From a virus, in UHGV virus genome UHGV-0119636: 27,711 nt of DNA, one strand, 5' to 3'. The translations under genes and the position numbers were made by a program. Below, piece after piece: positions 4,065-22,440 of this stretch (positions are counted from its first letter, which is position 1; each line of letters begins with the position of its first letter). The notes below the pieces were generated by a model. The model saw only the letters and a program-made list of their open reading frames with translations, was not told where the DNA came from and ran no database searches.

Positions 4065-5003
4065 TCAAATCATGTTGAGAATATCCCCATCCACATTGAA
4101 ATCAAGAAGAATAGTTCTCTCATAACCGTTCACGAAGTTACGATTTGCCTCGTTGTAAGTGTTATAGATTCCGAAATCTACGAAATTATCACCTACTGGA
4201 TGTTTCTCGTCATAAATCCATCCAACAATCTGACCTGCCTGTGTACGCGGGATTCCGAGCATATCATATACTTCATTCAGGAACAGATGACCTTTCGTTT
4301 TCAACATGTCATTTGCATAACGCTGCTGATCTTTAAGGAACATTAGATTGAATTCAGGATCTTTAGTCCATCCTGTACATCCATCATCGAAGAATTTAGC
4401 ATAATCGCTGTAACTGTCGAGAGTTGCTACATTTGCTGTTTTCTTAACAGTAGTTTCTGTACCATCTTCATTTACAACAGTCTCTTCGATTTCTTTTGCT
4501 TTGATGTTGTACTTCAGTTCTTTATCAAGCTCTTCACCAAATCTCTCAATAACACGACCACGATATTCCTTGAAGCCTTTGTCAATAGTTGCATAAGCGG
4601 CTGCAAGTGCTAAGTTACGTTTACGAAGAATATGATGACCACTAAGAATAGCAGCGATAGAAACTGTTCCAAGGATTACTGCTGGAGCATAAAGTTTTGC
4701 TACCTTTACGGCTGTTTGAGTATACATGATAGTTAAATCTTTCTTACCATCTTCTTCTGTGTACTCTTTACCTTCTGGAACCATATCTGGATTTTCCATA
4801 AATTCATGAATTTTCTCGATTTTTTCTTTTGGCTCAGCGAGCACCTCATCGAGTTTAGTAGTTGCTTTACATGCCATTACAGCAGAGCCAACTACACCAA
4901 CAATACCTGCGCCAACCAAGATTTCAGGGCTATGCTTTTTAAATTTAAAACCTACACGATGGAGGCTTCTAGTTACTGTGTTCATAATTTCTAATTTTGC
5001 CAT
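4065..5003 (-). CDS. Two-helix membrane protein, paralog family member A, 312 aa
   Basis: SD AAAAGGAGAG; N-terminal SPEILVGAGIVGVVGSAVMACKAT, second hydrophobic helix, RNLALAAAYA motif and conserved C-terminal domain shared with the genes at 7078-7905 and 9366-10133. Confidence 0.7.
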   Translation of the reverse strand: MAKLEIMNTVTRSLHRVGFKFKKHSPEILVGAGIVGVVGSAVMACKATTKLDEVLAEPKEKIEKIHEFMENPDMVPEGKEYTEEDGKKDLTIMYTQTAVKVAKLYAPAVILGTVSIAAILSGHHILRKRNLALAAAYATIDKGFKEYRGRVIERFGEELDKELKYNIKAKEIEETVVNEDGTETTVKKTANVATLDSYSDYAKFFDDGCTGWTKDPEFNLMFLKDQQRYANDMLKTKGHLFLNEVYDMLGIPRTQAGQIVGWIYDEKHPVGDNFVDFGIYNTYNEANRNFVNGYERTILLDFNVDGDILNMI

Positions 5004-6702: not shown

Positions 6703-7008
6703 TTATTTCTCGGCTGCTTCCTCGTCGATTTCTTCCTCGATAACGGATTCATCTTCAGGTTCATCAACCTCTTCAACCTCGACCCATTTCAGTCTTTTCT
6801 TGGCTTTCTTCTTTTTAGGCTGCTCGTCTTTCTTTTTGGATTTGATTTTCTTGTAAGCTGCTGCTCCTAATGCAACTGCTCCAGCAATCAATCCTACTGT
6901 CAGACCGATAGCCTTTCCAGATCCACCTTCTTCTACTGAATAGTCTTCCGGCTCCAGGTCAATAACCTCAACCTCGTTATCCATTACTTCGTCTTTGATT
7001 TCGCTCAT
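6703..7008 (-). CDS. Membrane protein with acidic termini, 101 aa
   Basis: ORF-track start at 7050 is the ATG inside the promoter motif; the real start is the ATG at 7008 preceded by SD AAAGGAGG. One helix GLTVGLIAGAVALGAAAY, then a lysine-rich stretch and acidic tail. Confidence 0.55.
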   Translation of the reverse strand: MSEIKDEVMDNEVEVIDLEPEDYSVEEGGSGKAIGLTVGLIAGAVALGAAAYKKIKSKKKDEQPKKKKAKKRLKWVEVEEVDEPEDESVIEEEIDEEAAEK

Positions 7009-7047
7009 AGCAAGATCCTCCTTTAAAATAATTTTAAGTATTTTCTT

Positions 7048-7074
7048 CATAAAGCACTGTGTATTTTTCGCGTA
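7048..7074 (-). promoter_or_regulatory. Conserved promoter/operator-like element, copy p
   Basis: Plus strand cataaagcactgtgtatttttcgcgta; member of the 17-copy family; about 40 nt upstream of the start at 7008. Confidence 0.5.
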
Positions 7075-7077
7075 TGA

Positions 7078-7905
7078 TTAATAGTAGCTATCGAAACCAT
7101 ATTCCGGAGGCATCAGATGATCAATAACAATACACGGTTCATTATCTTCCGTAATTTGAGCACTATATCTCACATCGATTTTGCCTTTATCGATTCTCCA
7201 ACCGATGCTATTACCAACTTCGGTATGCTTAAGACCAATTTCGTCATAGAAATCATTCAGAGAAATATACATCTCGTTACCGTTGATCATTCTCTCATTA
7301 AGAGTAAGAACAGCATTTTTAATCTTGTCGATATCCGATCTGAAATATCTGTCGGAATGACTGTCATAACACAACGTGTTACCTTTACCTGTCATGATAA
7401 TCTGAGTGTCTGCAACCGGATGTTCTTCAACTTGCTTCTTAGCGACTTTATCTCTGATGTTATTTTCCTTCTTCTCTCCGATAGTCTCTACCACTTTCTC
7501 TCTGTAGTCAGACAGTGCTGTTGTAGATAACTGATATGCTGTTGCCAATGCTGCGTTACGTCTTACATGTACGGAATTAGCACCGATAAGACAAGCGACT
7601 GACGCAATGCCAGTGATAGCTGCTGGAATATAAGGTTTCCAAGCTGCTTTTACTGTTTCGACAGGTGTGAGATTTAAAGCGTTTCTTTCGTCTTCTTCTG
7701 TGAAAATACCGCCTTCATGAGCTTCTTTCTCTTTAAACTTCTTCTCTTCCTCGATTAACTCCATAGCTTTTGGTGTTGCTTTTACTGCAAGCACAACAGT
7801 AGATATCATACCTGCGATACCAATGCCAGTAAGAATTTCCGGACTGCGTTTTTTCATTACATATTTTGCAGTGTTTAAAAATTTTGTTACATTTGGTTTG
7901 TTCAT
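7078..7905 (-). CDS. Two-helix membrane protein, paralog family member C, 275 aa
   Basis: SD GAAAGGAGA; SPEILTGIGIAGMISTVVLAVKATPKAMELIEEE N-terminus almost identical to the 9366-10133 gene; conserved C-terminal domain. Confidence 0.7.
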   Translation of the reverse strand: MNKPNVTKFLNTAKYVMKKRSPEILTGIGIAGMISTVVLAVKATPKAMELIEEEKKFKEKEAHEGGIFTEEDERNALNLTPVETVKAAWKPYIPAAITGIASVACLIGANSVHVRRNAALATAYQLSTTALSDYREKVVETIGEKKENNIRDKVAKKQVEEHPVADTQIIMTGKGNTLCYDSHSDRYFRSDIDKIKNAVLTLNERMINGNEMYISLNDFYDEIGLKHTEVGNSIGWRIDKGKIDVRYSAQITEDNEPCIVIDHLMPPEYGFDSYY

Positions 7906-7994
7906 TTTTTATCTCCTTTCATGAACAGTTAAATTGTTTTTACCAAAAATCCCACTCGGGAAAATTTTGATCTTGAAAAAATAGAAATCGAAAA

Positions 7995-8066
7995 GAAACA
8001 GTGTAGGACTCGAACCCACAACCTACAGATATAAGTCTGTTGCTCTACCAATTGAGCTAACTGTTT
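7995..8066 (-). tRNA. tRNA gene, anticodon probably UAU (Ile), with an unusual anticodon arm
   Basis: Hand fold: acceptor AAACAGT/ACTGTTT, D-arm GCTC-AATTGGTA-GAGC, T-arm GTGGG-TTCGAGT-CCTAC, 72 nt, no encoded CCA. The anticodon arm ACAGA-CUUAUA-UCUGU is 16 nt, one short of canonical. Starts 5 nt after the -10-like end of motif q. Confidence 0.65.
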
Positions 8067-8070
8067 CTTC

Positions 8071-8100
8071 TCATAATAGCGCTTGTAAATTTCGCGAATA
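8071..8100 (-). promoter_or_regulatory. Conserved promoter/operator-like element, copy q (drives the tRNA)
   Basis: Plus strand tcataatagcgcttgtaaatttcgcgaata. Confidence 0.55.
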
Positions 8101-8142
8101 TAGATCTTCAGAAACAAAAAAGAAGAACCCCGAAGGATTCTC

Positions 8143-8313
8143 CTAGACTTTCTTCTGAAGCTCAGAAACTGCTTTCTTCAACTCTTCAAACTCCTTTTCT
8201 TTTTTCTGATCTGATAATGCACCTGCTATAGCCATAATACCTGTTACTACAACACCTGCATATTTTCCGACAGACTTCAGAAGCGGATTATTGATAATAC
8301 CTTTGAATTTCAT
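8143..8313 (-). CDS. Small membrane protein, 56 aa
   Basis: Found by hand; SD GAAAGGAGA; hydrophobic YAGVVVTGIMAIAGAL; motif o lies upstream. Confidence 0.45.
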   Translation of the reverse strand: MKFKGIINNPLLKSVGKYAGVVVTGIMAIAGALSDQKKEKEFEELKKAVSELQKKV

Positions 8314-8336
8314 TTTTCTCGTCTCCTTTCTTCATT

Positions 8337-8366
8337 CCATTAAAGGAAATGTTTTTGTCGCGATAC
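8337..8366 (-). promoter_or_regulatory. Conserved promoter/operator-like element, copy o
   Basis: Plus strand ccattaaaggaaatgtttttgtcgcgatac. Confidence 0.5.
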
Positions 8367-8400
8367 CGGTTTCGCTATATCAAAATATCATCGTTTATCG

Positions 8401-8856
8401 TCACCCGTGTATGGGTAAATCCATTTTGATTTTGTCAGGATTCATAATGAGGATACTATCGCAGTCCCAGCCATACAGATCCCAATATAACTGATGATCA
8501 GCTGATAAATTTAACTCGATGGCATCATAGCCAAGTTCAATGCATTTCTCGAAATCTATCAGTGTACTTATTGATTTCCATACCGGGTCAGCAATTGTTG
8601 GAAGTTCCTTTAATTTTTCTACGGAATCTATAACGAATATATTGGCTTCCGGAAGAGTGAATATGAAACTATTTTCTTCAATACATTCACGAAAATTTTC
8701 TCTTTCACACCAGTCTTTCCAACCTAATTTGGCATCTATCGGACTAGCCCAAAGACCTCCTCTAGGTTTAACCCAGCATTGCTCATTTTGAATAGGTTTA
8801 AATAAGTTTGGATTAAAAGTTGCATGTCCGTAATGAATATAAATCTTGTCTTGCAT
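8401..8856 (-). CDS. Hypothetical protein, 151 aa
   Basis: ORF track extends to 8889, but the SD AAAGGA precedes the internal ATG at 8856 (MQDKIY...). Confidence 0.55.
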   Translation of the reverse strand: MQDKIYIHYGHATFNPNLFKPIQNEQCWVKPRGGLWASPIDAKLGWKDWCERENFRECIEENSFIFTLPEANIFVIDSVEKLKELPTIADPVWKSISTLIDFEKCIELGYDAIELNLSADHQLYWDLYGWDCDSILIMNPDKIKMDLPIHG

Positions 8857-8914
8857 ATTACTATCCTTTCGTTCAAAAACATATGTCACTTAGTAACAAA
8901 AAGAAAAGAGGCCC

Positions 8915-9118
8915 CTATTTCAGGACCTCAAATTTCTCTTTTTTATTTTTCTTGATTTTATTCTCAACGGATTCTTTCCATTGATTCGCTTTAGTTGCCA
9001 CTGCCTGTCTGACTTCTGGAATAGCAAGTGCCGAACCGACAACCGTTACTGCCGGCACAACAATCTGTCCAATCCAAAGTCTTACTTCTCTCATAGCATC
9101 AATATTTTTGCGTTTCAT
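8915..9118 (-). CDS. Small membrane protein, 67 aa
   Basis: SD AAAGGAGGA; hydrophobic IGQIVVPAVTVVGSALAI; a hairpin overlaps the stop. Confidence 0.5.
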   Translation of the reverse strand: MKRKNIDAMREVRLWIGQIVVPAVTVVGSALAIPEVRQAVATKANQWKESVENKIKKNKKEKFEVLK

Positions 9119-9150
9119 AGTTTTATCCTCCTTTAAAAATATAATCTTTT

Positions 9151-9177
9151 CATTAAAGGCGTTGTTTATTTAGCGAG
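9151..9177 (-). promoter_or_regulatory. Conserved promoter/operator-like element, copy n
   Basis: Plus strand cattaaaggcgttgtttatttagcgag. Confidence 0.5.
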
Positions 9178-9352
9178 TGTAATGGATATGCTCATTGTTT
9201 AATTCGTCGAGATGTTTAATAAAATCTAAATATCTTTTATTTCGTCTATTCTCCACAAAGTTTATAACTAACCAAGCAATCCCTACGATAGGCAAGCCAA
9301 CGAATACTAATAGAAATAGTAAGCATGTAATCATAGAAACAAGCGTATTCAT
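9170..9352 (-). CDS. Small membrane protein, 60 aa
   Basis: Internal ATG at 9352 has strong SD GAAAGGAGA; hydrophobic ITCLLFLLVFVGLPIVGIAWLVI; coupled to the upstream paralog gene. Confidence 0.5.
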   Translation of the reverse strand: MNTLVSMITCLLFLLVFVGLPIVGIAWLVINFVENRRNKRYLDFIKHLDELNNEHIHYTR

Positions 9353-9365
9353 AAATCTTCTCCTT

Positions 9366-10133
9366 TCAATACTCTTCGTAATCAATGAACGGCTCTGTGA
9401 AATCTACAATATAACATTCAATACCGTCGTCCATTTCTACTTTTGTATGGTGGAAATATAGCCAACCATCCCAGTACATTTCATACATCTGAGCTGCGGA
9501 CCAACCCATAAATTCACCGTAATCCTGTCGATCAATCTCTAGTAAATCGTAATAATCGTTTAAAGATGCACCACCGGATTGAGATAGCATTTTATTAATC
9601 TCATACTCTGCTCTCAATTGAGTTTCTTTCGTCACACGGTAATAACGTTTGGAATATTCATCGTAGAATAGTGTTTTGCCATCCTCGTATTCGTCGTCAT
9701 ATTCTTCTTTGTCTTCTTCCTCGTAATGGTCTTTTGCTACAGCAGCACGAATGAGTTTGTCTCCGTCTTCACCATATAACTTTTTAACTTTGTTTTTGTA
9801 CTCTTTGTGAGTTTGGTCTAGTAAGGCATAAGCAGATGCGATGGCTGCTTGGGAATGTTTGTTTAATAGATTCGCGCCAAATATGCAAGCTAGGGTTCCT
9901 GTTCCAATCAATAAGGAAGGAATATATGTTGGTCCTGCTACTCGAATAGTCTCCCATTTTGTTAATTCATCTCCTTTCTCTTCTTCAGCTAGTTCAATAA
10001 GTTCCATTGCTTTCGGAGTAGCTTTAACCGCCATTACAGCTGTACCTACCACTCCGGCAGCTCCTAATACTGTTAATATAGTAGAGCTGTTTTTCTTTAC
10101 GAATCTTTTCGAAACTGTTAGTAAGTCATTCAT
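9366..10133 (-). CDS. Two-helix membrane protein, paralog family member B, 255 aa
   Basis: ATG at 10133 with SD GGAG 10 nt upstream (ORF-track start at 10142 is GTG); N-terminus SSTILTVLGAAGVVGTAVMAVKATPKAMELIE; conserved C-terminal domain. Confidence 0.7.
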   Translation of the reverse strand: MNDLLTVSKRFVKKNSSTILTVLGAAGVVGTAVMAVKATPKAMELIELAEEEKGDELTKWETIRVAGPTYIPSLLIGTGTLACIFGANLLNKHSQAAIASAYALLDQTHKEYKNKVKKLYGEDGDKLIRAAVAKDHYEEEDKEEYDDEYEDGKTLFYDEYSKRYYRVTKETQLRAEYEINKMLSQSGGASLNDYYDLLEIDRQDYGEFMGWSAAQMYEMYWDGWLYFHHTKVEMDDGIECYIVDFTEPFIDYEEY

Positions 10134-10252
10134 TTCCAGCACGCTCCTTGGCGATAAATTTGGTAAAAATAAAAAGAGAAAGAAAAGAGTCAGCTTGTTG
10201 TGTAAACCAAGTCTAACTCAATTCTTTTTGTCATTATCCGAAATAACAATAT

Positions 10253-10284
10253 CCCATAACAGGTGATGTAATTTTCGCGAATCC
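10253..10284 (-). promoter_or_regulatory. Conserved promoter/operator-like element, copy c
   Basis: Plus strand cccataacaggtgatgtaattttcgcgaatcc. Confidence 0.5.
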
Positions 10285-10506
10285 CTACTGCTCAAAAAAT
10301 AAAACTACATCTACCGGATCTTTGAAGTGCTGCTCCTCCACTACTTCTTTAAATTCTTCAAATGATTCCGGTTCGTATTCTTGTAAATATAAAATCTGTT
10401 CAAGCAATCTTCCGTAAAATCCTTGAGAATTAGATAGCATTTTTACCACACCAATGACTTGTTCAACATCATAACCGTCTGCTTTCTTTTCCATAGCGTT
10501 TGCCAT
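10285..10506 (-). CDS. Small strongly acidic protein, 73 aa
   Basis: ATG at 10506 with SD AAAGGAG (track start 10515 is GTG); many Asp/Glu; no hydrophobic helix. Confidence 0.5.
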   Translation of the reverse strand: MANAMEKKADGYDVEQVIGVVKMLSNSQGFYGRLLEQILYLQEYEPESFEEFKEVVEEQHFKDPVDVVLFFEQ

Positions 10507-10682
10507 TTTGAACACTCCTTTAATTGGTTTTTGATAAAAATAAAAAGAGAATACAATGACTTCAGGGTCGGCCCAACGAAAACCGTTGCCCGGTGGGTAG
10601 CATGTTTTATTACGTTATTACGTGCCGCTACGCCTTCGTGTCTCACCACTGGATTTCCACCAGTATCTATCCATTGCTTTCT
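10507..10682 (-). other. Long GC-rich structured 5' leader between motif a and the acidic-protein gene
   Basis: About 175 nt without a convincing ORF; stem CAACG/CGTTG flanked by GGCC/CCCGG; possible 18-codon leader ORF with tandem Trp codons. Confidence 0.35.
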
Positions 10683-10714
10683 CTCATAATAGGTGATGTA
10701 ATTTTCGCGAATAG
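10683..10714 (-). promoter_or_regulatory. Conserved promoter/operator-like element, copy a
   Basis: Plus strand ctcataataggtgatgtaattttcgcgaatag. Confidence 0.5.
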
Positions 10715-10738
10715 AAAAAGAAAATGCCTAGTTTTTAA

Positions 10739-11002
10739 CTAGACAAATTCTTTAATAATTATTGTTCCACCAACTACATCGATTTTTATTTTATTCATCG
10801 CTTTCAACATACTAGCCACTTTTTGCACTGGTAACTTACTTGTGAAACCATAGAACACCAAGTCGCCCATGGTATATACATGCCCTACTGAATACTTAAC
10901 TTCAATATCGGCTGTATATTTGCCAAGGCAATCCATTGCTCCTAAATTTTTCACAACTTCGTTTTTATTCGCGCATAAAGTAATTTCATATTTAGTAAAC
11001 AT
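10739..11002 (-). CDS. Hypothetical protein, 87 aa
   Basis: SD AAGGAGG; motif b about 33 nt upstream. Confidence 0.55.
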   Translation of the reverse strand: MFTKYEITLCANKNEVVKNLGAMDCLGKYTADIEVKYSVGHVYTMGDLVFYGFTSKLPVQKVASMLKAMNKIKIDVVGGTIIIKEFV

Positions 11003-11034
11003 ATAAATTCCTCCTTATTCGATTTCATTGTTTT

Positions 11035-11067
11035 TCTCATAATAGGTGATGTAATTTTCGCGAAAAC
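11035..11067 (-). promoter_or_regulatory. Conserved promoter/operator-like element, copy b
   Basis: Plus strand tctcataataggtgatgtaattttcgcgaaaac; contains the 12-bp palindrome TTTTCGCGAAAA. Confidence 0.55.
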
Positions 11068-11085
11068 AAAAGAGAAAGGGCCCAT

Positions 11086-11223
11086 GTTACTGAGCCACTT
11101 TCGCTTTCTTATGATTTTTAACTGCTTTCTTAGAAACCTCTACTGCTTTATTCACTGCATCACTTGCCAAACTACCGACTACCAATCCGCCAGCAATCTC
11201 AATAATGTGTCTAACTAAAACAT
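11086..11223 (-). CDS. Small membrane protein, 45 aa
   Basis: Found by hand; SD AGGAGG; hydrophobic IIEIAGGLVVGSLA. Confidence 0.4.
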
Positions 11224-11258
11224 TCATTTTAGATTCCTCCTGTTAAGCAATTTATTAT

Positions 11259-11288
11259 CTTTCCATAATAGGACTTGTAATTTTCGCG
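11259..11288 (-). promoter_or_regulatory. Conserved promoter/operator-like element, copy d
   Basis: Plus strand ccataataggacttgtaattttcgcgaatt. Confidence 0.5.
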
Positions 11289-11320
11289 AATTAAAAGAAA
11301 AGACACCGTGTTTCAGGTGC

Positions 11321-11548
11321 CTAATCCTCTGAATCAACCATTTGTTCAATTTTCAGTAATACTTTCTGATCAATTTCTCCATCCGCATTGATATGAAATC
11401 GTATTTTACCATCCTTCATCTCAGCTTCTATCTCACTAATACGGATGTCTGGTTTGACTCCAATATTTTTGTATATAGCTCTAGATATAAGTTTGGCTAC
11501 CATACCTCTCATAAATCTAGTAGATAATTTAATTTTCATTTCGTCCAT
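11321..11548 (-). CDS. Hypothetical protein, 75 aa
   Basis: SD AGAAGGAGGAGG; motif e upstream. Confidence 0.55.
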   Translation of the reverse strand: MDEMKIKLSTRFMRGMVAKLISRAIYKNIGVKPDIRISEIEAEMKDGKIRFHINADGEIDQKVLLKIEQMVDSED

Positions 11549-11574
11549 AATTACCTCCTCCTTCTAGGTTGTTT

Positions 11575-11606
11575 CCTATAATAGGGGAAGTTTAAGTCGC
11601 GAAAAC
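11575..11606 (-). promoter_or_regulatory. Conserved promoter/operator-like element, copy e
   Basis: Plus strand cctataataggggaagtttaagtcgcgaaaac. Confidence 0.5.
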
Positions 11607-11634
11607 AAAAGAAAGAGCAGTGGGTGACACCGCT

Positions 11635-11742
11635 CTAACTGTTTCTCAAAAATCGAATGAGAATCCATACAAGCCATAATCCTCCGGTTGCAAATACTAA
11701 TACAAAGTCGATAAGCAATCCGAATAATCCACGCTTTTTCAT
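11635..11742 (-). CDS. Possible very small membrane peptide, 35 aa
   Basis: Found by hand; SD AAAGGAGAAG; hydrophobic GLFGLLIDFVLVFATGGLWLVWILI. Confidence 0.3.
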   Translation of the reverse strand: MKKRGLFGLLIDFVLVFATGGLWLVWILIRFLRNS

Positions 11743-11768
11743 GATTATCTTCTCCTTTCATTTTCTTT

Positions 11769-11797
11769 TCACAATAGGAGAAGTTTTTATCGCGTGC
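11769..11797 (-). promoter_or_regulatory. Conserved promoter/operator-like element, copy f
   Basis: Plus strand tcacaataggagaagtttttatcgcgtgc. Confidence 0.45.
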
Positions 11798-11845
11798 ATT
11801 ATCAGTTCCTTCAAATACAAAATAAAAGAGACCAATCGGCCTCTC

Positions 11846-11995
11846 TTACATGTTTCGTTTAGAAAGTTCTTCTGCTACCTTCTTTGCAATCTTTTCATCC
11901 AATAACTTATCTGTACTTTGTTTCCCTGCGAATGTTAATCCCGCACTAACAATAGCTGTTATAAGCTTTGCAATTCTAATTACTTTTGGTGACAT
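11846..11995 (-). CDS. Small protein, 49 aa
   Basis: Found by hand; SD AAAGGAGG; hydrophobic IAKLITAIVSAGLTFAG. Confidence 0.4.
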   Translation of the reverse strand: MSPKVIRIAKLITAIVSAGLTFAGKQSTDKLLDEKIAKKVAEELSKRNM

Positions 11996-12010
11996 AAATA
12001 TACCTCCTTT

Positions 12011-12038
12011 CTATAATAGAAGAGGTTTAAATCGCGCG
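12011..12038 (-). promoter_or_regulatory. Conserved promoter/operator-like element, copy g
   Basis: Plus strand ctataatagaagaggtttaaatcgcgcg. Confidence 0.45.
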
Positions 12039-12386
12039 TCTATCGAAGCAAGTTTCCCATCGTTCTCGCTTAACTGGCTTCATTTTCATAGTCCACATCA
12101 TTTGTCGGACCGTTACGGTGGGATATAAACCGTTCTCAGGTTCTCCCGATCTATCCTCGAAGAACTCCAGGAATCTTTCATGTAAATATAAAGTGTCTGT
12201 CAGCCACGGATCAATCTCGCCCCACCAGGTATTTTTCGTCGCTGGATCATATCGCTGCTGAATAACAGCTAGTCCTTTTCGTCCCATTTTGAATAAAGTA
12301 CATTTACTGTAAACTGGATGATCACATTCATAAGTTTCTCCGTACATCGATACATAAACTTTTGGCTTTTCGTAGTGATAACGCAT
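12027..12386 (-). CDS. Hypothetical protein, 119 aa
   Basis: SD GAAAGGA; a diverged motif-like element lies upstream (about 12411-12445). Confidence 0.6.
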   Translation of the reverse strand: MRYHYEKPKVYVSMYGETYECDHPVYSKCTLFKMGRKGLAVIQQRYDPATKNTWWGEIDPWLTDTLYLHERFLEFFEDRSGEPENGLYPTVTVRQMMWTMKMKPVKRERWETCFDRRAI

Positions 12387-12480
12387 ATTACTATTATCCT
12401 TTCTTTAACTTTAGTTATATAACTTTTGTTTAAACTCTCGCGTTAGGAAATATAAAAGAAGAAAAAAAAAGAAAAGACTA

Positions 12481-12560
12481 TGGGAATAGCGCGGGATTCG
12501 AACCCACGACGTTGAGTTTCCTCTTATTCTTCCATTAGAACTAACCGTCTTAACTATTCC
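12481..12560 (-). tRNA. tRNA-like gene with non-canonical body, possibly a Ser-type or degenerate tRNA
   Basis: Canonical T-arm GTGGG-TTCGAAT-CCCGC and 7-bp acceptor GGAATAG/CTATTCC, about 80 nt; no canonical D-arm or 17-nt anticodon arm found by hand; a GAGGAAACTC hairpin could be a variable arm. Confidence 0.45.
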
Positions 12561-12607
12561 AGAGACTTCTTCCGATATATTGCTATACGGGAATTGTTCT
12601 CTTCTTT

Positions 12608-12638
12608 TCTATAATAGGAAATGTTTATTTAGCGAAAG
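12608..12638 (-). promoter_or_regulatory. Conserved promoter/operator-like element, copy h (upstream of the tRNA-like gene)
   Basis: Plus strand tctataataggaaatgtttatttagcgaaag. Confidence 0.5.
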
Positions 12639-12679
12639 AAAATAGCCCAGGCGTTTAACCCGAGCTAATTCTCTTAAAC

Positions 12680-13048
12680 TTATTCGTTACCATTGAGTTT
12701 CTCAATAGCTTCAACCTTCCTGCTGTCAAACATCGTAGAATTTACAATACTCATCACAGCTTTGTAATATGTTTTCGGCTGATCCTTCTTGAGCAACTCT
12801 ATCGCCTGAACTTTACGACTATCAAACATGCTGCTGTTCATTATCGAAGCTACCGCACTGTCATAATCTGCTGTGCTAAATATATCCGCTAATAAATCAA
12901 CTTCATATGTGTCCTGTTTTCGTTTCTTTTCACGCAATACAACTGCCACAATTGGAATCGCAATACCAATCCCATTTGCTACATATTCTGTGATTTTCCA
13001 TAAACTCTCTTTTGTTTTCTCGCTAGTTAAAACTTCTTTGATTTTCAT
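12680..13048 (-). CDS. Membrane protein with two internal ~30-aa repeats, 122 aa
   Basis: SD AGGAGG; hydrophobic IGIAIPIVAVVL; repeats SIMNSSMFDSRKVQAIELLKKDQ and SIVNSTMFDSRKVEAIEKLNGNE. Confidence 0.6.
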   Translation of the reverse strand: MKIKEVLTSEKTKESLWKITEYVANGIGIAIPIVAVVLREKKRKQDTYEVDLLADIFSTADYDSAVASIMNSSMFDSRKVQAIELLKKDQPKTYYKAVMSIVNSTMFDSRKVEAIEKLNGNE

Positions 13049-13073
13049 ATCAATAACCTCCTATAAGTTTATT

Positions 13074-13106
13074 CTCATAACAGGCGTTGTAATAATAGCG
13101 AAAAAG
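13074..13106 (-). promoter_or_regulatory. Conserved promoter/operator-like element, copy i
   Basis: Plus strand ctcataacaggcgttgtaataatagcgaaaaag. Confidence 0.5.
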
Positions 13107-13148
13107 AAGAGCCTAAGTCATTTCGACTCAAGCCCTTCCATTTTGAAA

Positions 13149-13532
13149 TTACTTTTTTGGGAGTAACTTCTGAATGAATCCTCGACCCATTATTGTTGTG
13201 ATGGTTCCAGTCTCTTCGAATTTGATAGACTTGATTGTGCCCCAGATAGTAACCGCTGTCGGTATAACAATACCCGCTCCTGTTAAGCAATTCTTAACAA
13301 CTCGATCTTTTCGTTCATCTTTAAGCTGCTCTGCTCTTAATTCAGCATCAACATTTTGCTGATCCTTTTTAAGTTCTTGTTCAGCCTTAATTTTCTCAAG
13401 TTCGATTGCTCGATCACATAACTTTGTCAGGCCGTCTACCGTATTTTTGTACTTATCTGTACCTACTTCAAGTTTTCCTAACTCTTCGAATTCGTCCTGA
13501 ATCTCATCTTTTAATAATGTTTCAATACTCAT
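13149..13532 (-). CDS. Coiled-coil protein with C-terminal hydrophobic helix, 127 aa
   Basis: Track start 13562 is the ATG inside motif j; the real start is the ATG at 13532 after SD AAGGAGG. Confidence 0.55.
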   Translation of the reverse strand: MSIETLLKDEIQDEFEELGKLEVGTDKYKNTVDGLTKLCDRAIELEKIKAEQELKKDQQNVDAELRAEQLKDERKDRVVKNCLTGAGIVIPTAVTIWGTIKSIKFEETGTITTIMGRGFIQKLLPKK

Positions 13533-13556
13533 TTTGAACTCCTCCTTATATTCGTA

Positions 13557-13588
13557 TTTCATAATAGGGAATGTTATTTTTGCGACAG
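13557..13588 (-). promoter_or_regulatory. Conserved promoter/operator-like element, copy j
   Basis: Plus strand tttcataatagggaatgttatttttgcgacag. Confidence 0.5.
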
Positions 13589-13783
13589 ATCTACTCTAAG
13601 CATTACGTGTTTATCTTTTCGTAGCTTATATGCCTTACCACTATCTATTTCTAAAAATAAATACGGTGCTGAGTCTGGATCTGAGCTGTCTACTTTCAGT
13701 GTGCCGATTGGCTTTTTTACTAAGAGTGTCGTTGCCACAACTGCACCTATCAGCATACCTACTAATAAAAATAAAAGTTCCAC
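13574..13783 (-). CDS. Small membrane protein, 69 aa, GTG start
   Basis: SD AAAGGAGGAAG before the internal GTG at 13783 (track start 13849 has no SD); hydrophobic LLFLLVGMLIGAVVATTLLV. Confidence 0.45.
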   Translation of the reverse strand: MELLFLLVGMLIGAVVATTLLVKKPIGTLKVDSSDPDSAPYLFLEIDSGKAYKLRKDKHVMLRVDLSQK

Positions 13784-13943
13784 TACGCTACTTCCTCCTT
13801 TCTTCAATAGAATTGTTTTATCGAAAACTCCCTCCCGGGAAATTTTCACTTTAGAATTTTAATATTGTTTCCTGTCACCTATGTACGGAATATCTATTCT
13901 AGATTAGAGTTTGTTTTAATCTAGGTTAAAGAAAAAAGAGAGC

Positions 13944-14180
13944 CTAAGCCCTCTTATCTGTCATAAAACTTGGTAACTGAAGTTCTGGTTTATAAGTCAT
14001 TAACTCTGCTTCATATAGCCTCATGATAATAGCTATCTCATCTTCATGAATACTTTTTATCAACTTAAAGACTTTATCATAATCAACATCTGATTTATTC
14101 TTCATTTGACAAATATAATCCACGAGTCTGGTATACTTATCATCCGCAGTTCCTATCATTGCCGCAAATTTAACTTCCAT
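13944..14180 (-). CDS. Hypothetical protein, 78 aa
   Basis: SD AAGGAGGA; motif k upstream. Confidence 0.55.
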   Translation of the reverse strand: MEVKFAAMIGTADDKYTRLVDYICQMKNKSDVDYDKVFKLIKSIHEDEIAIIMRLYEAELMTYKPELQLPSFMTDKRA

Positions 14181-14213
14181 AATTTATCCTCCTTAAATTT
14201 AAAGTTTTATGTT

Positions 14214-14246
14214 TCTATAAAGTAGTATGTATTTTTGGCGAAAAAG
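14214..14246 (-). promoter_or_regulatory. Conserved promoter/operator-like element, copy k
   Basis: Plus strand tctataaagtagtatgtatttttggcgaaaaag. Confidence 0.45.
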
Positions 14247-14261
14247 AAAAGAAGAGACCGA

Positions 14262-14462
14262 TTAGGCCTCCTCTTTAAATAACTCAGGGTATTTCTCCAT
14301 CAGTTCTTTTCTGTCTCGTTCAATGTCTTTTTCTATATGCTCGATTTCTGCTTCCAATTTACCTGTGCTTTTACCTAAACGGTAACCCAGATAAGATCCT
14401 ACAGCATAAACCAATCCGGCATATAAACCAAAACCTAAACCAGCTTTTAAATTAGCTTTCAT
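14262..14462 (-). CDS. Small membrane protein with glycine-zipper helix, 66 aa
   Basis: SD AGGAG; GLGFGLYAGLVYAVGSYLGY; imperfect terminator hairpin overlaps the stop. Confidence 0.5.
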   Translation of the reverse strand: MKANLKAGLGFGLYAGLVYAVGSYLGYRLGKSTGKLEAEIEHIEKDIERDRKELMEKYPELFKEEA

Positions 14463-14486
14463 GATAGATCACTCCTATAATTTATT

Positions 14487-14516
14487 CTCATAATAGGCGT
14501 TGTTTTAGTCGCGATC
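14487..14516 (-). promoter_or_regulatory. Conserved promoter/operator-like element, copy l
   Basis: Plus strand ctcataataggcgttgttttagtcgcgatc. Confidence 0.5.
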
Positions 14517-14693
14517 ATCAAACGGTACTTCTATGTTTTCAATCTCGTCAGAAATAATCTCCCCGTCACCGATAAGTAGTTCTCTTTTGTTTATTTGATT
14601 AACGCTAGTTCGATATATACCCTCAGCTACTGCTAGTCCGATAAATGTACTTACTCCCCAAAGAATTCCTTTGATTAATTTATTAGTATCCAT
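14505..14693 (-). CDS. Small membrane protein, 62 aa
   Basis: Internal ATG at 14693 after AGAGGAAAA; hydrophobic GILWGVSTFIGLAVAEGI; its stop lies inside motif l. Confidence 0.45.
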   Translation of the reverse strand: MDTNKLIKGILWGVSTFIGLAVAEGIYRTSVNQINKRELLIGDGEIISDEIENIEVPFDDRD

Positions 14694-14773
14694 TTTGAAT
14701 TTTCCTCTCATGATATATTCTCTATTGGAAATCAAAAGGAAGAGTATCTGCATAGATACCCGCCTTTTTGTTT

Positions 14774-14989
14774 TTAATTATTGCTTGTGGTCCAACCCAT
14801 GTTGTTCTGTGTGAATGAGTTGTTAATGCCGTTGATAGTTCTTACTCTATCCTCGTACAATGAATTGTCGCTAATGATGCTAACTCCGAATTTCCATTTG
14901 AAGTCTGGAATTTCGTTAGCTGCTTTCATAGCTTCATCCCATTTCTCAAGGAAGACTTCTATCGCATATCCTCTCTCTACACTATCCAT
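14774..14989 (-). CDS. Hypothetical protein, 71 aa
   Basis: SD AGGAGGG; motif m upstream. Confidence 0.5.
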   Translation of the reverse strand: MDSVERGYAIEVFLEKWDEAMKAANEIPDFKWKFGVSIISDNSLYEDRVRTINGINNSFTQNNMGWTTSNN

Positions 14990-15016
14990 GTCGTTACCCT
15001 CCTTTATAATAATTTT

Positions 15017-15046
15017 CTATAAAGGAGCGTGTAATTTTCGCGAATA
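15017..15046 (-). promoter_or_regulatory. Conserved promoter/operator-like element, copy m
   Basis: Plus strand ctataaaggagcgtgtaattttcgcgaata. Confidence 0.5.
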
Positions 15047-15092: not shown

Positions 15093-15512
15093 TCAATCCC
15101 TAGCATTCGATAGCAGCCAAAAGAACCTTCTGTACCTGTCGTAATACATGTCTCTACCGCACGGAATATCTAACTTTGACCGCAGGTAAGTATACGATAA
15201 ACCCTCTGTAACCGCTTTTAAAATGTAATCGTACAAATAACGGTCTGCATCCAAAGCTATCCTCTCGATTAGATCGATTTTCTCTTTATAATAAGCTCTC
15301 AAGATTGCTCTCTTACCTGTTGGATCACCAGGCATATTGCTCGTTGGGATTTTCTCGATCATGGATAACGGTACAGAATGATCGTTAAAAGCAGCATAAG
15401 CACTCTTCCATATCGGATACTGTAAACAAAAATGTTTTAGTTCGTAATATCGATGTTTGCTAATCCAGTATTTGTTGTTCTCAGACAGCTCTGGACGTAT
15501 TCTTGTTGCCAT
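15093..15512 (-). CDS. Putative transcriptional regulator, RinA/ArpU-like, 139 aa
   Basis: Third gene of the Cro-like operon; ELKHFCLQYP and the basic C-terminus loosely recall phage RinA/ArpU activators (weak, from memory). Confidence 0.4.
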   Translation of the reverse strand: MATRIRPELSENNKYWISKHRYYELKHFCLQYPIWKSAYAAFNDHSVPLSMIEKIPTSNMPGDPTGKRAILRAYYKEKIDLIERIALDADRYLYDYILKAVTEGLSYTYLRSKLDIPCGRDMYYDRYRRFFWLLSNARD

Positions 15513-15908: not shown

Positions 15909-15938
15909 AGAATATCACCAGCTTACTTTTTCTGTCAA
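15909..15938 (-). promoter_or_regulatory. Putative sigma-A-type promoter for the Cro-like operon
   Basis: On the minus strand, TTGACA (plus 15933-15938) then 18 nt then TATTCT (plus 15909-15914). Confidence 0.4.
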
Positions 15939-16016: not shown

Positions 16017-16088
16017 ATGGATTGATAAGAGAAGAATAAGAAAGAGTCCTAAGACTCATCTTCGCGATAGTATAAAGGAGTTAACCGA

Positions 16089-16685
16089 ATGACAATAGGA
16101 CAAAAAATAAAAGAATTACGCAATCAACTTAATATGTCGGTGGATGATCTTGCTGTGAAACTGGGTAAGAACCGTGCGACTATCTACCGCTATGAACGAG
16201 GAGATATCGAGAACCTCCCTCTCGATGTACTAGAACCATTAGCAAATGCTCTTGAGACCACACCTGGTTATTTAATGGGATGGGAAGAAACTACGAAAAA
16301 GAAAGAGCCTTCAATTATCGATGAAGTTACCATGGGTGACGTTTTTAAAGCGTTACGTCTAGGAAGTAATTTATCGATAGAGGAATTTTCGCATGAGATT
16401 GGATTATCTGCCCAAGACATAAGCAATTATGAAGCAGGAAAGACTCCTATACCTGTAAATATAATTAATCTTGTTGCTGATTTCTTTGGCATATCAATAG
16501 CGGAAATAGTTAAGGCACACAAAAACAGCGAAAATAGAACGCCTTCTGGTTTCGAAATGAAAAAGGAACGATTTGAACGTTTTAAAGTTTGGAATAAAGA
16601 GTTTGGACGAATACATTTTACTGATGAAGAAATCAATAAAATAATGGAATATACAAGGTTCTTACTTAGCCAAAGAAGACAGTAA
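16089..16685 (+). CDS. Tandem-HTH XRE-family repressor-like regulator, 198 aa
   Basis: SD AAAGGAG; two XRE-type helix-turn-helix units (residues about 1-65 and 80-140); no peptidase S24-like C-terminus seen. Confidence 0.75.
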   Translation: MTIGQKIKELRNQLNMSVDDLAVKLGKNRATIYRYERGDIENLPLDVLEPLANALETTPGYLMGWEETTKKKEPSIIDEVTMGDVFKALRLGSNLSIEEFSHEIGLSAQDISNYEAGKTPIPVNIINLVADFFGISIAEIVKAHKNSENRTPSGFEMKKERFERFKVWNKEFGRIHFTDEEINKIMEYTRFLLSQRRQ

Positions 16686-21317: not shown

Positions 21318-22440
21318 TTACTTGTCTAAGAACAAACCTGTTATTGGTATAAGCAACTCCATTGTTTCCCTGTCCGGTATAGTTATTTTCAACCCCACCG
21401 GTGAGTTTGCCATCAGATATGTTCAATACTTTAACACTCGCATATCCGCAAACTTCAGACATAAGCGTGAAACACCACGGTTTTCCTGAGTATGTAGAAA
21501 CAGCGCTTTTAGGCACGAAGAAGCTATGTAATCTTGTATTAGTAGCAGACCCATTATAATAGTCAGAGAATATCAATACGATTCCATGAGGTTGATTTGA
21601 TACAGGGCTACTAAAAGTTATGGTATGAGTATTACTCGGCCATAAACTTCCGGTCCATAGTGTATTATTTGTAAACCTTTCGGTAACTGAACCTCTTACA
21701 AAGCCATTATCAGCAGTAAACGTCATAGCAGTTCTGATACTGTGAGGGGAATATGAATCTGTTGGGGTCATGAGAAAATAATTTTCGCTACTCCCATCAA
21801 CTTTTCTAGCAAACATTTTTACTGTAGGACTGACTCCTCCTCTATCCCCTTTAACGCTAACATAAGAAGCCACACCATCGTGTGACTCAAAATTTGCTAA
21901 CATATCAGCAATATCTGCTCTTAATACCACGCGATACTCTCCATCATAGCGGCTAGTGTAAATTGTTTCAGTAGTTGAGGCAGCATTAGCTTCGTATGTA
22001 ATGATTGGATCATCATCATCTTCGAAATAAACGAGAACATCGTCTGTAAATGCTTCATCGTTTTCGATGACTAAAGTACCTTTTACAGTAGATATCTTAC
22101 CTCTACCGTTATTCATGGATATTACTGTATTATCTGAATTTTTCCCGAGATCTATTAACGATTCACCAAAAGTAGCCAACTCAGTAATTCCGTTTCTCAT
22201 TTCGATGTCTGTACTACTAATAAGAATATTTCTGCCAAGAGTTGATGTTCTCTTATCAGCAACCATAAGTCCATTAGCATCGAAACCGAGGAAGTTTGTA
22301 GCGGTTTTAGCAGCTTCTACAGCCTGACCATAAGGATCAATCCAGCTACTCCATGTTGAAGTTGAAGTTCCAACACGCCAATATTCTTTTCCAGTACCTT
22401 CGACTTTGGCTGTCTGTCTCGGATATTTTTGTACGGCATA
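21307..22440 (-). CDS. Tail fibre / receptor-binding protein, C-terminal segment; frame open upstream of its first ATG
   Basis: Frame is open from the TGA at 22441-22443 to the stop at 21307; the 58 codons before the first ATG (22266) are protein-like (GTGKEYWRVGTSTSTWSSW) and match the fibre repeat module. Confidence 0.55.
   Translation of the reverse strand, partial: YAVQKYPRQTAKVEGTGKEYWRVGTSTSTWSSWIDPYGQAVEAAKTATNFLGFDANGLMVADKRTSTLGRNILISSTDIEMRNGITELATFGESLIDLGKNSDNTVISMNNGRGKISTVKGTLVIENDEAFTDDVLVYFEDDDDPIITYEANAASTTETIYTSRYDGEYRVVLRADIADMLANFESHDGVASYVSVKGDRGGVSPTVKMFARKVDGSSENYFLMTPTDSYSPHSIRTAMTFTADNGFVRGSVTERFTNNTLWTGSLWPSNTHTITFSSPVSNQPHGIVLIFSDYYNGSATNTRLHSFFVPKSAVSTYSGKPWCFTLMSEVCGYASVKVLNISDGKLTGGVENNYTGQGNNGVAYTNNRFVLRQVIGV

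Follow-up and report, generated by a model that had tools for sequence, protein, structure and literature searches.

The present analysis concerns the class A element, which is about 30 nucleotides (nt) in length and occurs seventeen times in a 27,711-nt stretch of the virus genome UHGV-0119636 (called the window below, by which the whole of this stretch is meant). The element is very probably a promoter whose transcripts would start at the G directly following its conserved TTAT, a position which is read from the anatomy of the sequence around the copies. The same element characterizes a large lineage of temperate Clostridia phages, and the only gene that is constantly associated with it encodes a protein of 139 amino acids (aa). 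The account favoured here, to which a probability of about one half is given, is a cascade in which a host early promoter leads to the production of the 139-aa protein, which would act as the factor with which the host polymerase uses the class A elements as middle promoters; the parts given to the factor and to the enzyme are drawn from association.

The element in the window and its relatives

The copies were first aligned by eye and with a loose regular expression, and a position weight matrix (PWM) was then built from them. The matrix finds exactly seventeen sites in the window. These lie between 7043 and 15044, without exception on the minus strand, and score 26-42 bits, while the best non-member position on either strand scores 8.5 bits and the remaining 19.7 kilobases (kb) of the window contain no copy. 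The seventeen near-identical copies claimed in an earlier note on this DNA are thus confirmed. A repeat search of the window recovers the same family, and the 15-mer TTCGCGAAAATTACA has, at up to 3 mismatches, 12 matches as compared to 1.5 +/- 1.2 in shuffled sequences, 10 of the 12 being on the minus strand within 7060-15044.

All of the copies share a fixed register with no insertions or deletions, and the gap between CGCGA and T(A/T)TTAT is 13 nt in each of the 17. The spacing is therefore rigid, instead of varying by N4-5 as the earlier note had it; the variable stretch is N3, and an exact pattern written with N4 matched nothing in the viral contigs. The apparent additional nucleotide in three copies is produced by the replacement of TATTAT with CTTTAT, the register being kept at TTAT. 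Three further sites had been listed in the earlier note as diverged copies. One of them, at about 12411-12445, is indeed a decayed copy scoring below 8 bits, in which CGCGA and TTAT remain in register and ACA and CT are lost, while the other two (7932-7967 and 13811-13846) are copies of a separate repeat, 81% identical to one another, which is referred to below as class B.

The search of related phage genomes which that note had proposed yielded approximately 1000 unique class A copies, and these have the same invariant bases. The family consensus is tt-CGC-r-aaA-www-ACA-nnby-CT-w-TTAT-G-RRA or, numbered from the predicted start, tt C-24 G-23 C-22 r a a A-18 w w w A-14 C-13 A-12 n n b y C-7 T-6 w T-4 T-3 A-2 T-1 G+1 R R A. 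In the family logo, CGC, C-13, T-4, A-2 and T-1 are conserved at 96-100% and A-14, A-12, C-7, T-6 and T-3 at 73-95%; G+1 is conserved at 95-97% and is followed by purines at +2 to +4, and the positions of TTAT-G are individually conserved at 88-99%. The centres of the conserved blocks fall at -23, -13 and -2, which places the blocks one helical turn apart on the same face of the DNA. The logo has no conservation upstream of -26, and there is no conserved base-pairing within the element. The palindromic core from which a dimeric regulator had been proposed does not hold up in this comparison, as only the CGC is invariant across the family; because the base after the CGC is G or A at about equal frequency, TTCGCGAA is a peculiarity of the phage in the window.

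The orientation of the element is strict. All of 80 viral contigs fetched by way of the 139-aa protein (55-99% identity) carry 2-20 matches on the strand of the gene and none on the opposite strand, and 80 genome (prophage) loci, 1.29 megabases in all, contain 584 matches on the strand of the gene as compared to 1 on the other. Among the prophage carriers are Hungatella hathewayi DSM 13479 and Clostridium leptum DSM 753, together with genomes of Roseburia, Blautia, Lachnospira and Christensenellaceae. Another 119 loci were found by the motif alone, and these never have matches on both strands.

The predicted transcription start

The distance from TTAT to the core of the Shine-Dalgarno (SD) sequence is bimodal and peaks sharply at 3-4 nt (TTAT-GAA-AGGAGG-N7-ATG being one instance). 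The SD core lies 3-5 nt past TTAT in 69 of 333 unique sites, and in a larger set it lies no more than 5 nt past TTAT in 202 of 755, one third of these having a terminator hairpin and its T tract immediately before them. Since such a hairpin and T tract precede them, the latter sites cannot rely on transcription from upstream. Where the element is followed by a transfer RNA (tRNA), the 5' end of the tRNA is found 0-6 nt past TTAT, mostly 2-3, and no more than 5 nt past it in 48 of 50 unique element-tRNA junctions. It is from the SD positions and the tRNA 5' ends, two independent features, together with the near-invariant G and the purine run, that the start is predicted to be the G after TTAT.

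The -10 hexamer of sigma-70-family promoters lies at -12 to -7. As the start is predicted at the G right after TTAT, TATTAT would not be a sigma-A -10 hexamer; the earlier note had regarded it as a correctly placed -10 with a start about 7 nt downstream, and this is contradicted, and by the criterion that the note itself had set refuted, by a placement which draws on the SDs 3-5 nt away in 20-27% of sites and on the 48 tRNA junctions rather than on mapped 5' ends. The broader proposals of the note, that small genes and RNAs form a regulon of which the copies are the promoters and that these are not ordinary sigma-A promoters, are both supported. No -35 hexamer is conserved 16-18 base pairs (bp) upstream of a -10, there being nothing conserved upstream of -26; no -10 stands at -12 to -7 with a start 6-9 nt beyond it, the start being predicted 0-3 nt past TTAT; and sigma-70-like matches in the region are not enriched (34, as compared to 33 +/- 6 in shuffled sequences). 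Other assignments were tried and rejected: a -35-like role for TTACA (no -10 is found 17 bp downstream), a hidden upstream promoter with TATTAT as a pause element (the region upstream of -26 is not conserved) and a leaderless ATG, in the place of which 5 of the 17 copies have ATA.

The 139-aa protein

Among the 160 related loci the 139-aa gene precedes the first class A copy in every locus with enough sequence, and most of the arrays in the 80 viral contigs begin right after it. The gene lies within the fetched stretch in 52 of the 119 motif-found loci, always on the strand of the motif; in the remainder the stretches are too short or lie far along the genome, which puts the exclusivity of the association beyond reach. 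The expectation that a phage-encoded function is tied to the element is thus borne out, the 139-aa protein being the sole neighbour conserved with it in the 160 loci. Two of the regulators that the earlier note had suggested, the Cro-like protein and the tandem helix-turn-helix (HTH) repressor, are not conserved with the element: the Faecalibacterium phage FP_oengus has the element and a homologue of the 139-aa protein, with neither of these genes adjoining. A conserved small partner protein encoded just upstream of the 139-aa gene was considered and rejected, since this position is held by at least two unrelated families.

The protein belongs to phrog_11237, a family of about 7900 members without annotation (7912 unnamed homologues), and nothing was found in the literature on the motif, on this family or on DUF6353, a family which recurs in the array. 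Its most conserved parts are the N-terminal segment, which is near-invariant (YWIxKHRYYELKHFCLQYPxWK), and the C-terminal helices. Searches of Pfam, NCBIfam and PDB sequences and a Foldseek search of the PDB gave no match; at the level of the fold there is a weak resemblance to sigma region 4 and small phage activators, and the matches in BFVD include DUF1492 proteins. The label "RinA/ArpU-like" given to the protein in the earlier note is not upheld by these searches. No membership of the RinA/ArpU families (Pfam DUF1492 / TIGR01637-type) was detected at E<=10 for 35 members, an hhalign comparison with RinA of 80alpha gave a probability of 0.3%, and the gene stands in the early operon and is followed by 7-21 copies of the element, which is not the single late promoter upstream of terS that characterizes RinA/ArpU. 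Neither the 139-aa protein nor the 57-aa protein encoded in the same operon has a Pfam, PHROG-function or NCBIfam match that would indicate a MotA-like activator or an AsiA-like co-factor. Covariation between protein residues and motif variants across 104 unique 139-aa proteins gave diffuse associations which mark clades, with continuous variation of the motif within phages, and yielded no specificity signal. On the strength of its association with the element, the 139-aa protein is the best candidate for the specificity factor.

YonO-like polymerases and the class B element

The complete genome of FP_oengus (58.4 kb), in which the 139-aa homologue is 40% identical, encodes gp55, a 924-aa two-barrel polymerase which resembles YonO and RNA-dependent RNA polymerases (RdRP) and has the motif GADFDGD and a C-terminal HTH like that of sigma region 4. 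Of the 14 class A sites in this genome (at 2.3-8.2 kb, 22.5 kb and 27.7 kb), the one at 27.7 kb heads an endonuclease-exonuclease-polymerase operon, and the late region at 31-58 kb has none. About 60 further polymerase loci have a class A site approximately 930 nt upstream of the polymerase gene, and with two exceptions none within 3 kb downstream. A YonO-like gene is present in at least 14 of the 119 motif-found loci, and about 29 kb downstream in four of the contigs retrieved with the 139-aa protein. In one oengus-like contig, L328 (IMGVR_UViG_3300029378_000340), the 139-aa homologue is only 1.2 kb upstream of the polymerase gene, and the space between them is taken up by nothing but the class A promoter, the endonuclease gene and the exonuclease gene; the contig may be a variant produced by deletion, or a satellite-like arrangement, in which these parts alone are retained.

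No polymerase gene was found in the window. In the lineage of the window, none was found in contig IMGVR_UViG_3300045988_061906 (49 to 89 kb, the 40 kb which follow the 139-aa gene downstream) or in the 70.6-kb scaffold MT835485, both of which are without the head-gene region where relatives carry it, and class A sites continue over 40-50 kb, 21 of them being in MT835485. This scaffold, which is 70% related, also has a reverse transcriptase beside an 885-aa tail-fibre-like protein (L284, 28237-32421), probably a diversity-generating retroelement, which is absent from the window.

The sequence of the YonO promoter is still unknown (PMC5467207). The published YonO start in SPbeta (168 coordinate 2225998) was bounded on SPBc2, by means of the published primers, to an interval of about 200 nt, which contains GTCGGATAATAGTCATTTATGAGGG; a second copy lies 155 nt upstream. 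This element has the CG-N9-CA spacing of class A and ends in TTTATG-purines, and it lacks 6 nt of the class A register; the match is suggestive, but out of register. No homologue of the 139-aa protein is detectable in SPbeta.

The class B element, AAAATTTCCCCGGrGGGnATTTTT, is in relatives often a near-perfect palindrome preceded by ATCGCGGCGGTCTT. It stands at the head of the late region, 320-495 nt past the polymerase stop codon, in at least 21 of 51 unique loci (L412-L490), and also at 31721 in L175; it may represent a promoter used by the polymerase itself, or else a site for the binding of a protein. The two class-B-like copies in the window are about 45 nt upstream of genes.

Organization of the array

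The features of the window are collected in Table 1. Followed along the minus strand, the window begins with structural and tail genes (27.6 to 19 kb), continues with a plus-strand lysogeny module composed of the tandem-HTH repressor and a serine integrase, and then presents a sigma-A-type promoter, the Cro-like gene, a 57-aa open reading frame (ORF), the 139-aa gene and the first class A copy. From there on the region is a string of self-contained units, in which the intrinsic terminator of the previous unit is followed by the element, a leader of 0-40 nt and a small gene, tRNA or small RNA (sRNA). Each copy is followed either by an SD and a start codon 17-40 nt past TTAT or by an RNA; the earlier note was right in placing each copy upstream of a minus-strand gene or tRNA, and its distance of 20-40 nt before the ribosome-binding site (RBS) is corrected to 17-40 nt before the start codon, or to a position directly before an RNA gene. 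The proteins of the array are 35-127 aa in length and several are of membrane type. There are 19 terminator-like hairpins as compared to an expected 4.5 +/- 2.5, of which 18 are on the minus strand and 8 abut a class A copy; across the family, a hairpin with a T tract is found just upstream of 34-62% of sites as compared to 4% of random positions.

Table 1. Features of the window. Coordinates of class A copies span -26 to +6 relative to the predicted start; PWM scores are in bits.
Feature	Position	Strand	Predicted start	Gene or RNA downstream	PWM score	Remarks
Class A copy 1	15013..15044	-	15018	71-aa gene 14774-14989	34.9	SD + ATG 29 nt past TTAT; 49 nt downstream of 139-aa stop
Class A copy 2	14484..14515	-	14489	66-aa membrane-type gene 14262-14462	35.9	
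Class A copy 3	14211..14242	-	14216	78-aa gene 13944-14180	26.2	terminator 14276-14248 abuts
Class A copy 4	13555..13586	-	13560	127-aa gene 13149-13532 (phrog_15866)	33.1	
Class A copy 5	13071..13102	-	13076	122-aa gene 12680-13048	33.5	terminator 13139-13105 abuts
Class A copy 6	12605..12636	-	12610	~130-nt non-coding RNA ~12610-12480, tRNA-like 3' end	35.4	no SD or ORF after; terminator 12667-12643 upstream
Class A copy 7	12007..12038	-	12012	49-aa gene 11846-11995	28.9	SD 4 nt past TTAT: TATTAT-AGAA-AGGAGG-N7-ATG
Class A copy 8	11765..11796	-	11770	35-aa membrane peptide gene starting 11742	32.6	terminator 11849-11822 upstream
Class A copy 9	11572..11603	-	11577	75-aa gene 11321-11548	36.0	terminator 11636-11614 abuts
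Class A copy 10	11259..11290	-	11264	46-aa gene 11087-11227	41.2	terminator 11322-11301 abuts
Class A copy 11	11033..11064	-	11038	87-aa gene 10739-11002	42.3	terminator 11096-11079 abuts
Class A copy 12	10680..10711	-	10685	~150-nt untranslated leader or sRNA, then gene 10285-10515	39.9	no SD within 70 nt; terminator 10745-10725 abuts
Class A copy 13	10250..10281	-	10255	~80-nt RNA ending in T-rich tract, then DUF6353 gene 9366-10142	39.6	
Class A copy 14	9146..9177	-	9151	67-aa gene 8915-9118	34.3	
Class A copy 15	8333..8364	-	8338	56-aa gene 8143-8313	32.7	
Class A copy 16	8067..8098	-	8072	tRNA 7994-8067, 5-nt leader	37.4	tRNA by ARAGORN and Rfam (62 bits); terminator 8144-8121 upstream
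Class A copy 17	7043..7074	-	7048	~101-aa gene 6703-7008	26.2	
139-aa protein gene (phrog_11237)	15093..15512	-				candidate specificity factor
Sigma-A-type early promoter, TTGACA-18-TG-n-TATTCT	15909..15938	-		Cro-like/57-aa/139-aa operon		divergent from repressor gene; best minus-strand sigma-70-like match in region; sequence conserved in L001
Cro-like HTH gene, 72 aa	15654..15872	-				first in early operon; weak HTH matches, phrog_3; not conserved across family
Tandem-HTH CI-like repressor	16089..16685	+				HTH_3 x2; lysogeny switch, not tied to element; absent beside element in FP_oengus
Class B copy 1 (AAAATTTTCCCGAGTGGGATTTTTGGTAAAAACAATT)	7932..7967	-		DUF6353 gene 7078-7905, ~45 nt downstream		resembles element downstream of YonO-like polymerase gene in relatives
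Class B copy 2	13811..13846	-		small membrane-protein gene, GTG start 13783		

Three promoter-driven stretches of the minus strand, 12480-12610, 10520-10685 and 10170-10255, have no ORF or SD, and a search of these non-coding stretches against Rfam gave no match at E<=1. That at 12480-12610 has a tRNA-like T-arm and acceptor 3' end which neither ARAGORN nor Rfam calls. The three stretches may be phage sRNAs or degenerate tRNAs. The tRNA of the window and the tRNAs in L036, L047, L048, L054, L108 and others are unusual. In many relatives an element-driven tRNA has the anticodon UUA (an ochre suppressor according to ARAGORN), and others, including that of the window, have anticodon loops of 6 or 8 nt and an 8-bp acceptor stem, which suggests stop-codon suppression or some other non-standard decoding role.

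DUF6353 (phrog_2152) is represented by three paralogues in the window, at 4065-5003, 7078-7905 and 9366-10142 (minus strand), each with an N-terminal membrane segment. FP_oengus likewise has three, and a function for the family was not found in the literature searched. A comparison of the window with L001, a contig related at 99%, suggests recombination at the repeated promoter as a route by which cassettes are gained or lost. Between the repressor gene and the early promoter, L001 has an extra cassette (8960-9480), consisting of a class A promoter, a 136-aa gene and a terminator, while at the corresponding position of the window (about 16040-16075) there is only the remnant TCGCGAAG and the terminator. 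In the tail-fibre region of the window, a 469-aa protein (minus strand, 22317-23726) has collagen-like Gly-X-Y repeats, encoded with a 9-nt period of the GGTCCT type at 22590-22712 and about 23440-23480.

Proposed cascade and alternative explanations

In the cascade favoured here, the class A promoters would be silent until the lysogeny switch opens. The sigma-A-type early promoter beside the repressor gene would then transcribe the Cro-like and 139-aa genes, and the 139-aa protein, predicted to be helical with a C-terminal HTH like that of sigma region 4, would direct the host RNA polymerase to the class A promoters. These would serve as middle promoters for the array of accessory small genes, the phage tRNAs, the sRNAs and the replication genes, and in many relatives they would also serve the operon of the YonO-like polymerase, which would subsequently take over late transcription. 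Use of the host polymerase is favoured by the position of the 139-aa gene, which comes first and is under a host-type promoter by the lysogeny switch; by the location of the polymerase gene, which is preceded by a class A promoter of its own and by many terminators; by the end of the class A sites at the polymerase gene, after which a class B-type element appears; and by the canonical intrinsic terminators at the ends of the units.

Several considerations weigh against this cascade. No geometry of the sigma-70 family accommodates a start which immediately follows an invariant TTAT and has conserved blocks before it at -24 and -13, and we know of no precedent for it with a bacterial polymerase. 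T7-type promoters have TATA-G, and a start of this kind is typical of phage-encoded polymerases; the late promoters of the non-virion RNA polymerase (nvRNAP) of PhiKZ have TATG, with the G at +1 (PMC4666361). Many relatives encode a YonO-like polymerase, and the phage of the window may do so as well, outside the part that was sampled. The link between the 139-aa protein and the element is one of association, on which the covariation test was uninformative.

Much of this evidence bears also on a second reading, possible if rather doubtful, in which class A elements are the promoters of a YonO-like, two-barrel, single-subunit phage polymerase whose gene lies outside the window, and which recognizes them either alone, through N- and C-terminal HTH modules, or in combination with the 139-aa protein, which would be its specificity subunit. 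The predicted start at the 3' G of an invariant TTATG, with bases on one face of the DNA conserved between -24 and +4, is what suggests it, along with the PhiKZ precedent, the strongly conserved motifs that are repeated before many early genes for the two-barrel polymerases of P23-45, and the presence of such a gene in FP_oengus, in at least 14 of the motif-found loci and in the four contigs mentioned above. The duplicated SPbeta element in the interval of the YonO start points in the same direction, but it is 6 nt short of the class A register, and SPbeta has YonO without a detectable 139-aa homologue. In the relatives that have it the polymerase gene is itself behind class A, separated from the early operon by 6-30 kb and many terminators, and since it lies so far downstream there is nothing obvious to make the first phage polymerase after induction. 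Class A furthermore stops past the polymerase gene, where the other conserved element follows, and in the lineage of the window (represented by incomplete sequences) it continues through 40-50 kb downstream of the 139-aa gene in which no polymerase gene is found.

It is improbable that the copies are promoters of the T4-middle type, with an activator box near -30, a true sigma-A -10 hexamer, T(A/T)TTAT, at -12 to -7, a start about 7 nt downstream and an appropriation of sigma like that by MotA/AsiA, which is essentially the model of the earlier note. The distance of about 20.5 bp between the centres of CGC and TTAT is that between MotA box and -10 hexamer in T4 middle promoters, and the 13 bp between CGCGA and TATTAT falls within the 11-13 bp which separate box and -10 there; TATTAT resembles TATAAT, GRRA could act as a discriminator, and there is no -35 element. 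The predicted start nevertheless contradicts a -10 role for TATTAT, as a start 6-8 nt past TTAT would leave the RBS out of the transcript at 20-27% of the sites and remove the first 2-5 nt, and with them part of the acceptor stem, from 48 of the 50 tRNAs, and the equivalent of A-11 is A in only about 45% of copies, while the G after TTAT is nearly invariant. Still less credence can be given to a function of the element in RNA, as a nuclease processing site after UUAU or as a "stoperator" at which a repressor blocks elongation, even though a cut after UUAU would explain the closely following RBSs and tRNA 5' ends equally well, and the strict orientation resembles that of the asymmetric stoperators of cluster A mycobacteriophages. 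Many copies would not be transcribed from upstream, because terminator hairpins with T tracts directly precede them; the invariant bases are one DNA turn apart, in the absence of conserved pairing; and the repressor is not conserved with the element. An array of stoperators would be accompanied by its repressor and would not have to stand at transcript starts, while here the repressor is absent beside the element in FP_oengus and the copies have a fixed relation to SDs and tRNA 5' ends.

Significance and comparison with known systems

There is a real, somewhat less than even, chance that in class A a promoter is defined for the first time for the YonO-like polymerases of Firmicute phages (RdRP-related, two-barrel, single-chain), which would use it with the 139-aa protein as an initiation factor, or else that the 139-aa protein is a new substitute for sigma, which starts the bacterial polymerase directly after TTAT by way of contacts at -24 and -13. 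If either is true, an architecture undescribed for these enzymes would be present in thousands of prophages of gut Clostridia. The element provides a testable handle on how these prophages are switched on, and it bears on the question of what YonO-like polymerases recognize. It is also an accurate marker of transcription units, including tRNAs, sRNAs and very small membrane peptides that are missed by gene callers, and it might be put to use in Clostridia as an orthogonal expression part.

On the features tested, class A is outside the sigma-A, sigma-54, RinA/ArpU and stoperator classes, and probably outside the T4-middle class. Sigma-54 promoters have GG at -24 and GC at -12 (TGGCAC-N5-TTGCW), while the class A blocks at -24 to -22 and -14 to -12 have the sequences CGC and ACA, at a distance of 10 bp instead of 12. 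The systems to which class A is closest in its proposed logic are T4 middle transcription (MotA/AsiA), SPO1 gp28 and T4 gp55, in each of which an early phage protein redirects the host polymerase to many phage promoters lacking a -35, as a middle step of a cascade. T4 middle promoters, like class A, have an upstream box about 20 bp from a T/A-rich downstream box. The predicted class A start, however, adjoins the T/A-rich box instead of standing 7 nt further on, the sequence of the 139-aa protein is not similar to that of MotA, AsiA, gp28 or gp55, and the present system is known from sequence alone.

Class A shares with the promoters of the PhiKZ nvRNAP, of P23-45 gp96/gp64 and of T7-type polymerases a conservation that includes the start, having the TATG or TATA-G type of motif at -3/-4 to +1; its TTATG with G+1 matches the late motif of PhiKZ, and it occurs in many near-identical copies before small early or middle genes. 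It differs from them in its CGC and ACA blocks, which have no counterpart there, in that no polymerase was found in the window or in 40-50 kb of its closest relatives, and in that the YonO-like gene of other relatives itself lies behind class A. The likeness to SPbeta consists of the YonO-like proteins of relatives, encoded just before the late/structural module, and of the TTTATG-purines element in the start interval, but SPbeta employs one late promoter as opposed to the 7-21 copies found here.

RinA, ArpU and LtrC are, like the 139-aa protein, small helical phage proteins (about 140 aa) with a C-terminal HTH which switch on phage promoters, and there is a weak resemblance at the level of the fold. 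They act at one late promoter upstream of terS, while the 139-aa protein would be the first to be produced and is associated with many promoters, and there is no similarity in sequence or profile. The array itself resembles morons and the promoter-early stem-loop (PeSL) cassettes of T4-type phages, in which small accessory genes are framed by a conserved promoter and a terminator and the content varies between close relatives; the difference is that the promoter here is not of host type. Phage-specific promoter arrays are already known, and what sets the present one apart is its lineage, a very large and uncharacterised one of temperate phages of human-gut Clostridia (Lachnospiraceae, Oscillospiraceae including Faecalibacterium, and Christensenellaceae), the geometry of its predicted start, and the unannotated 139-aa family with which it is associated.

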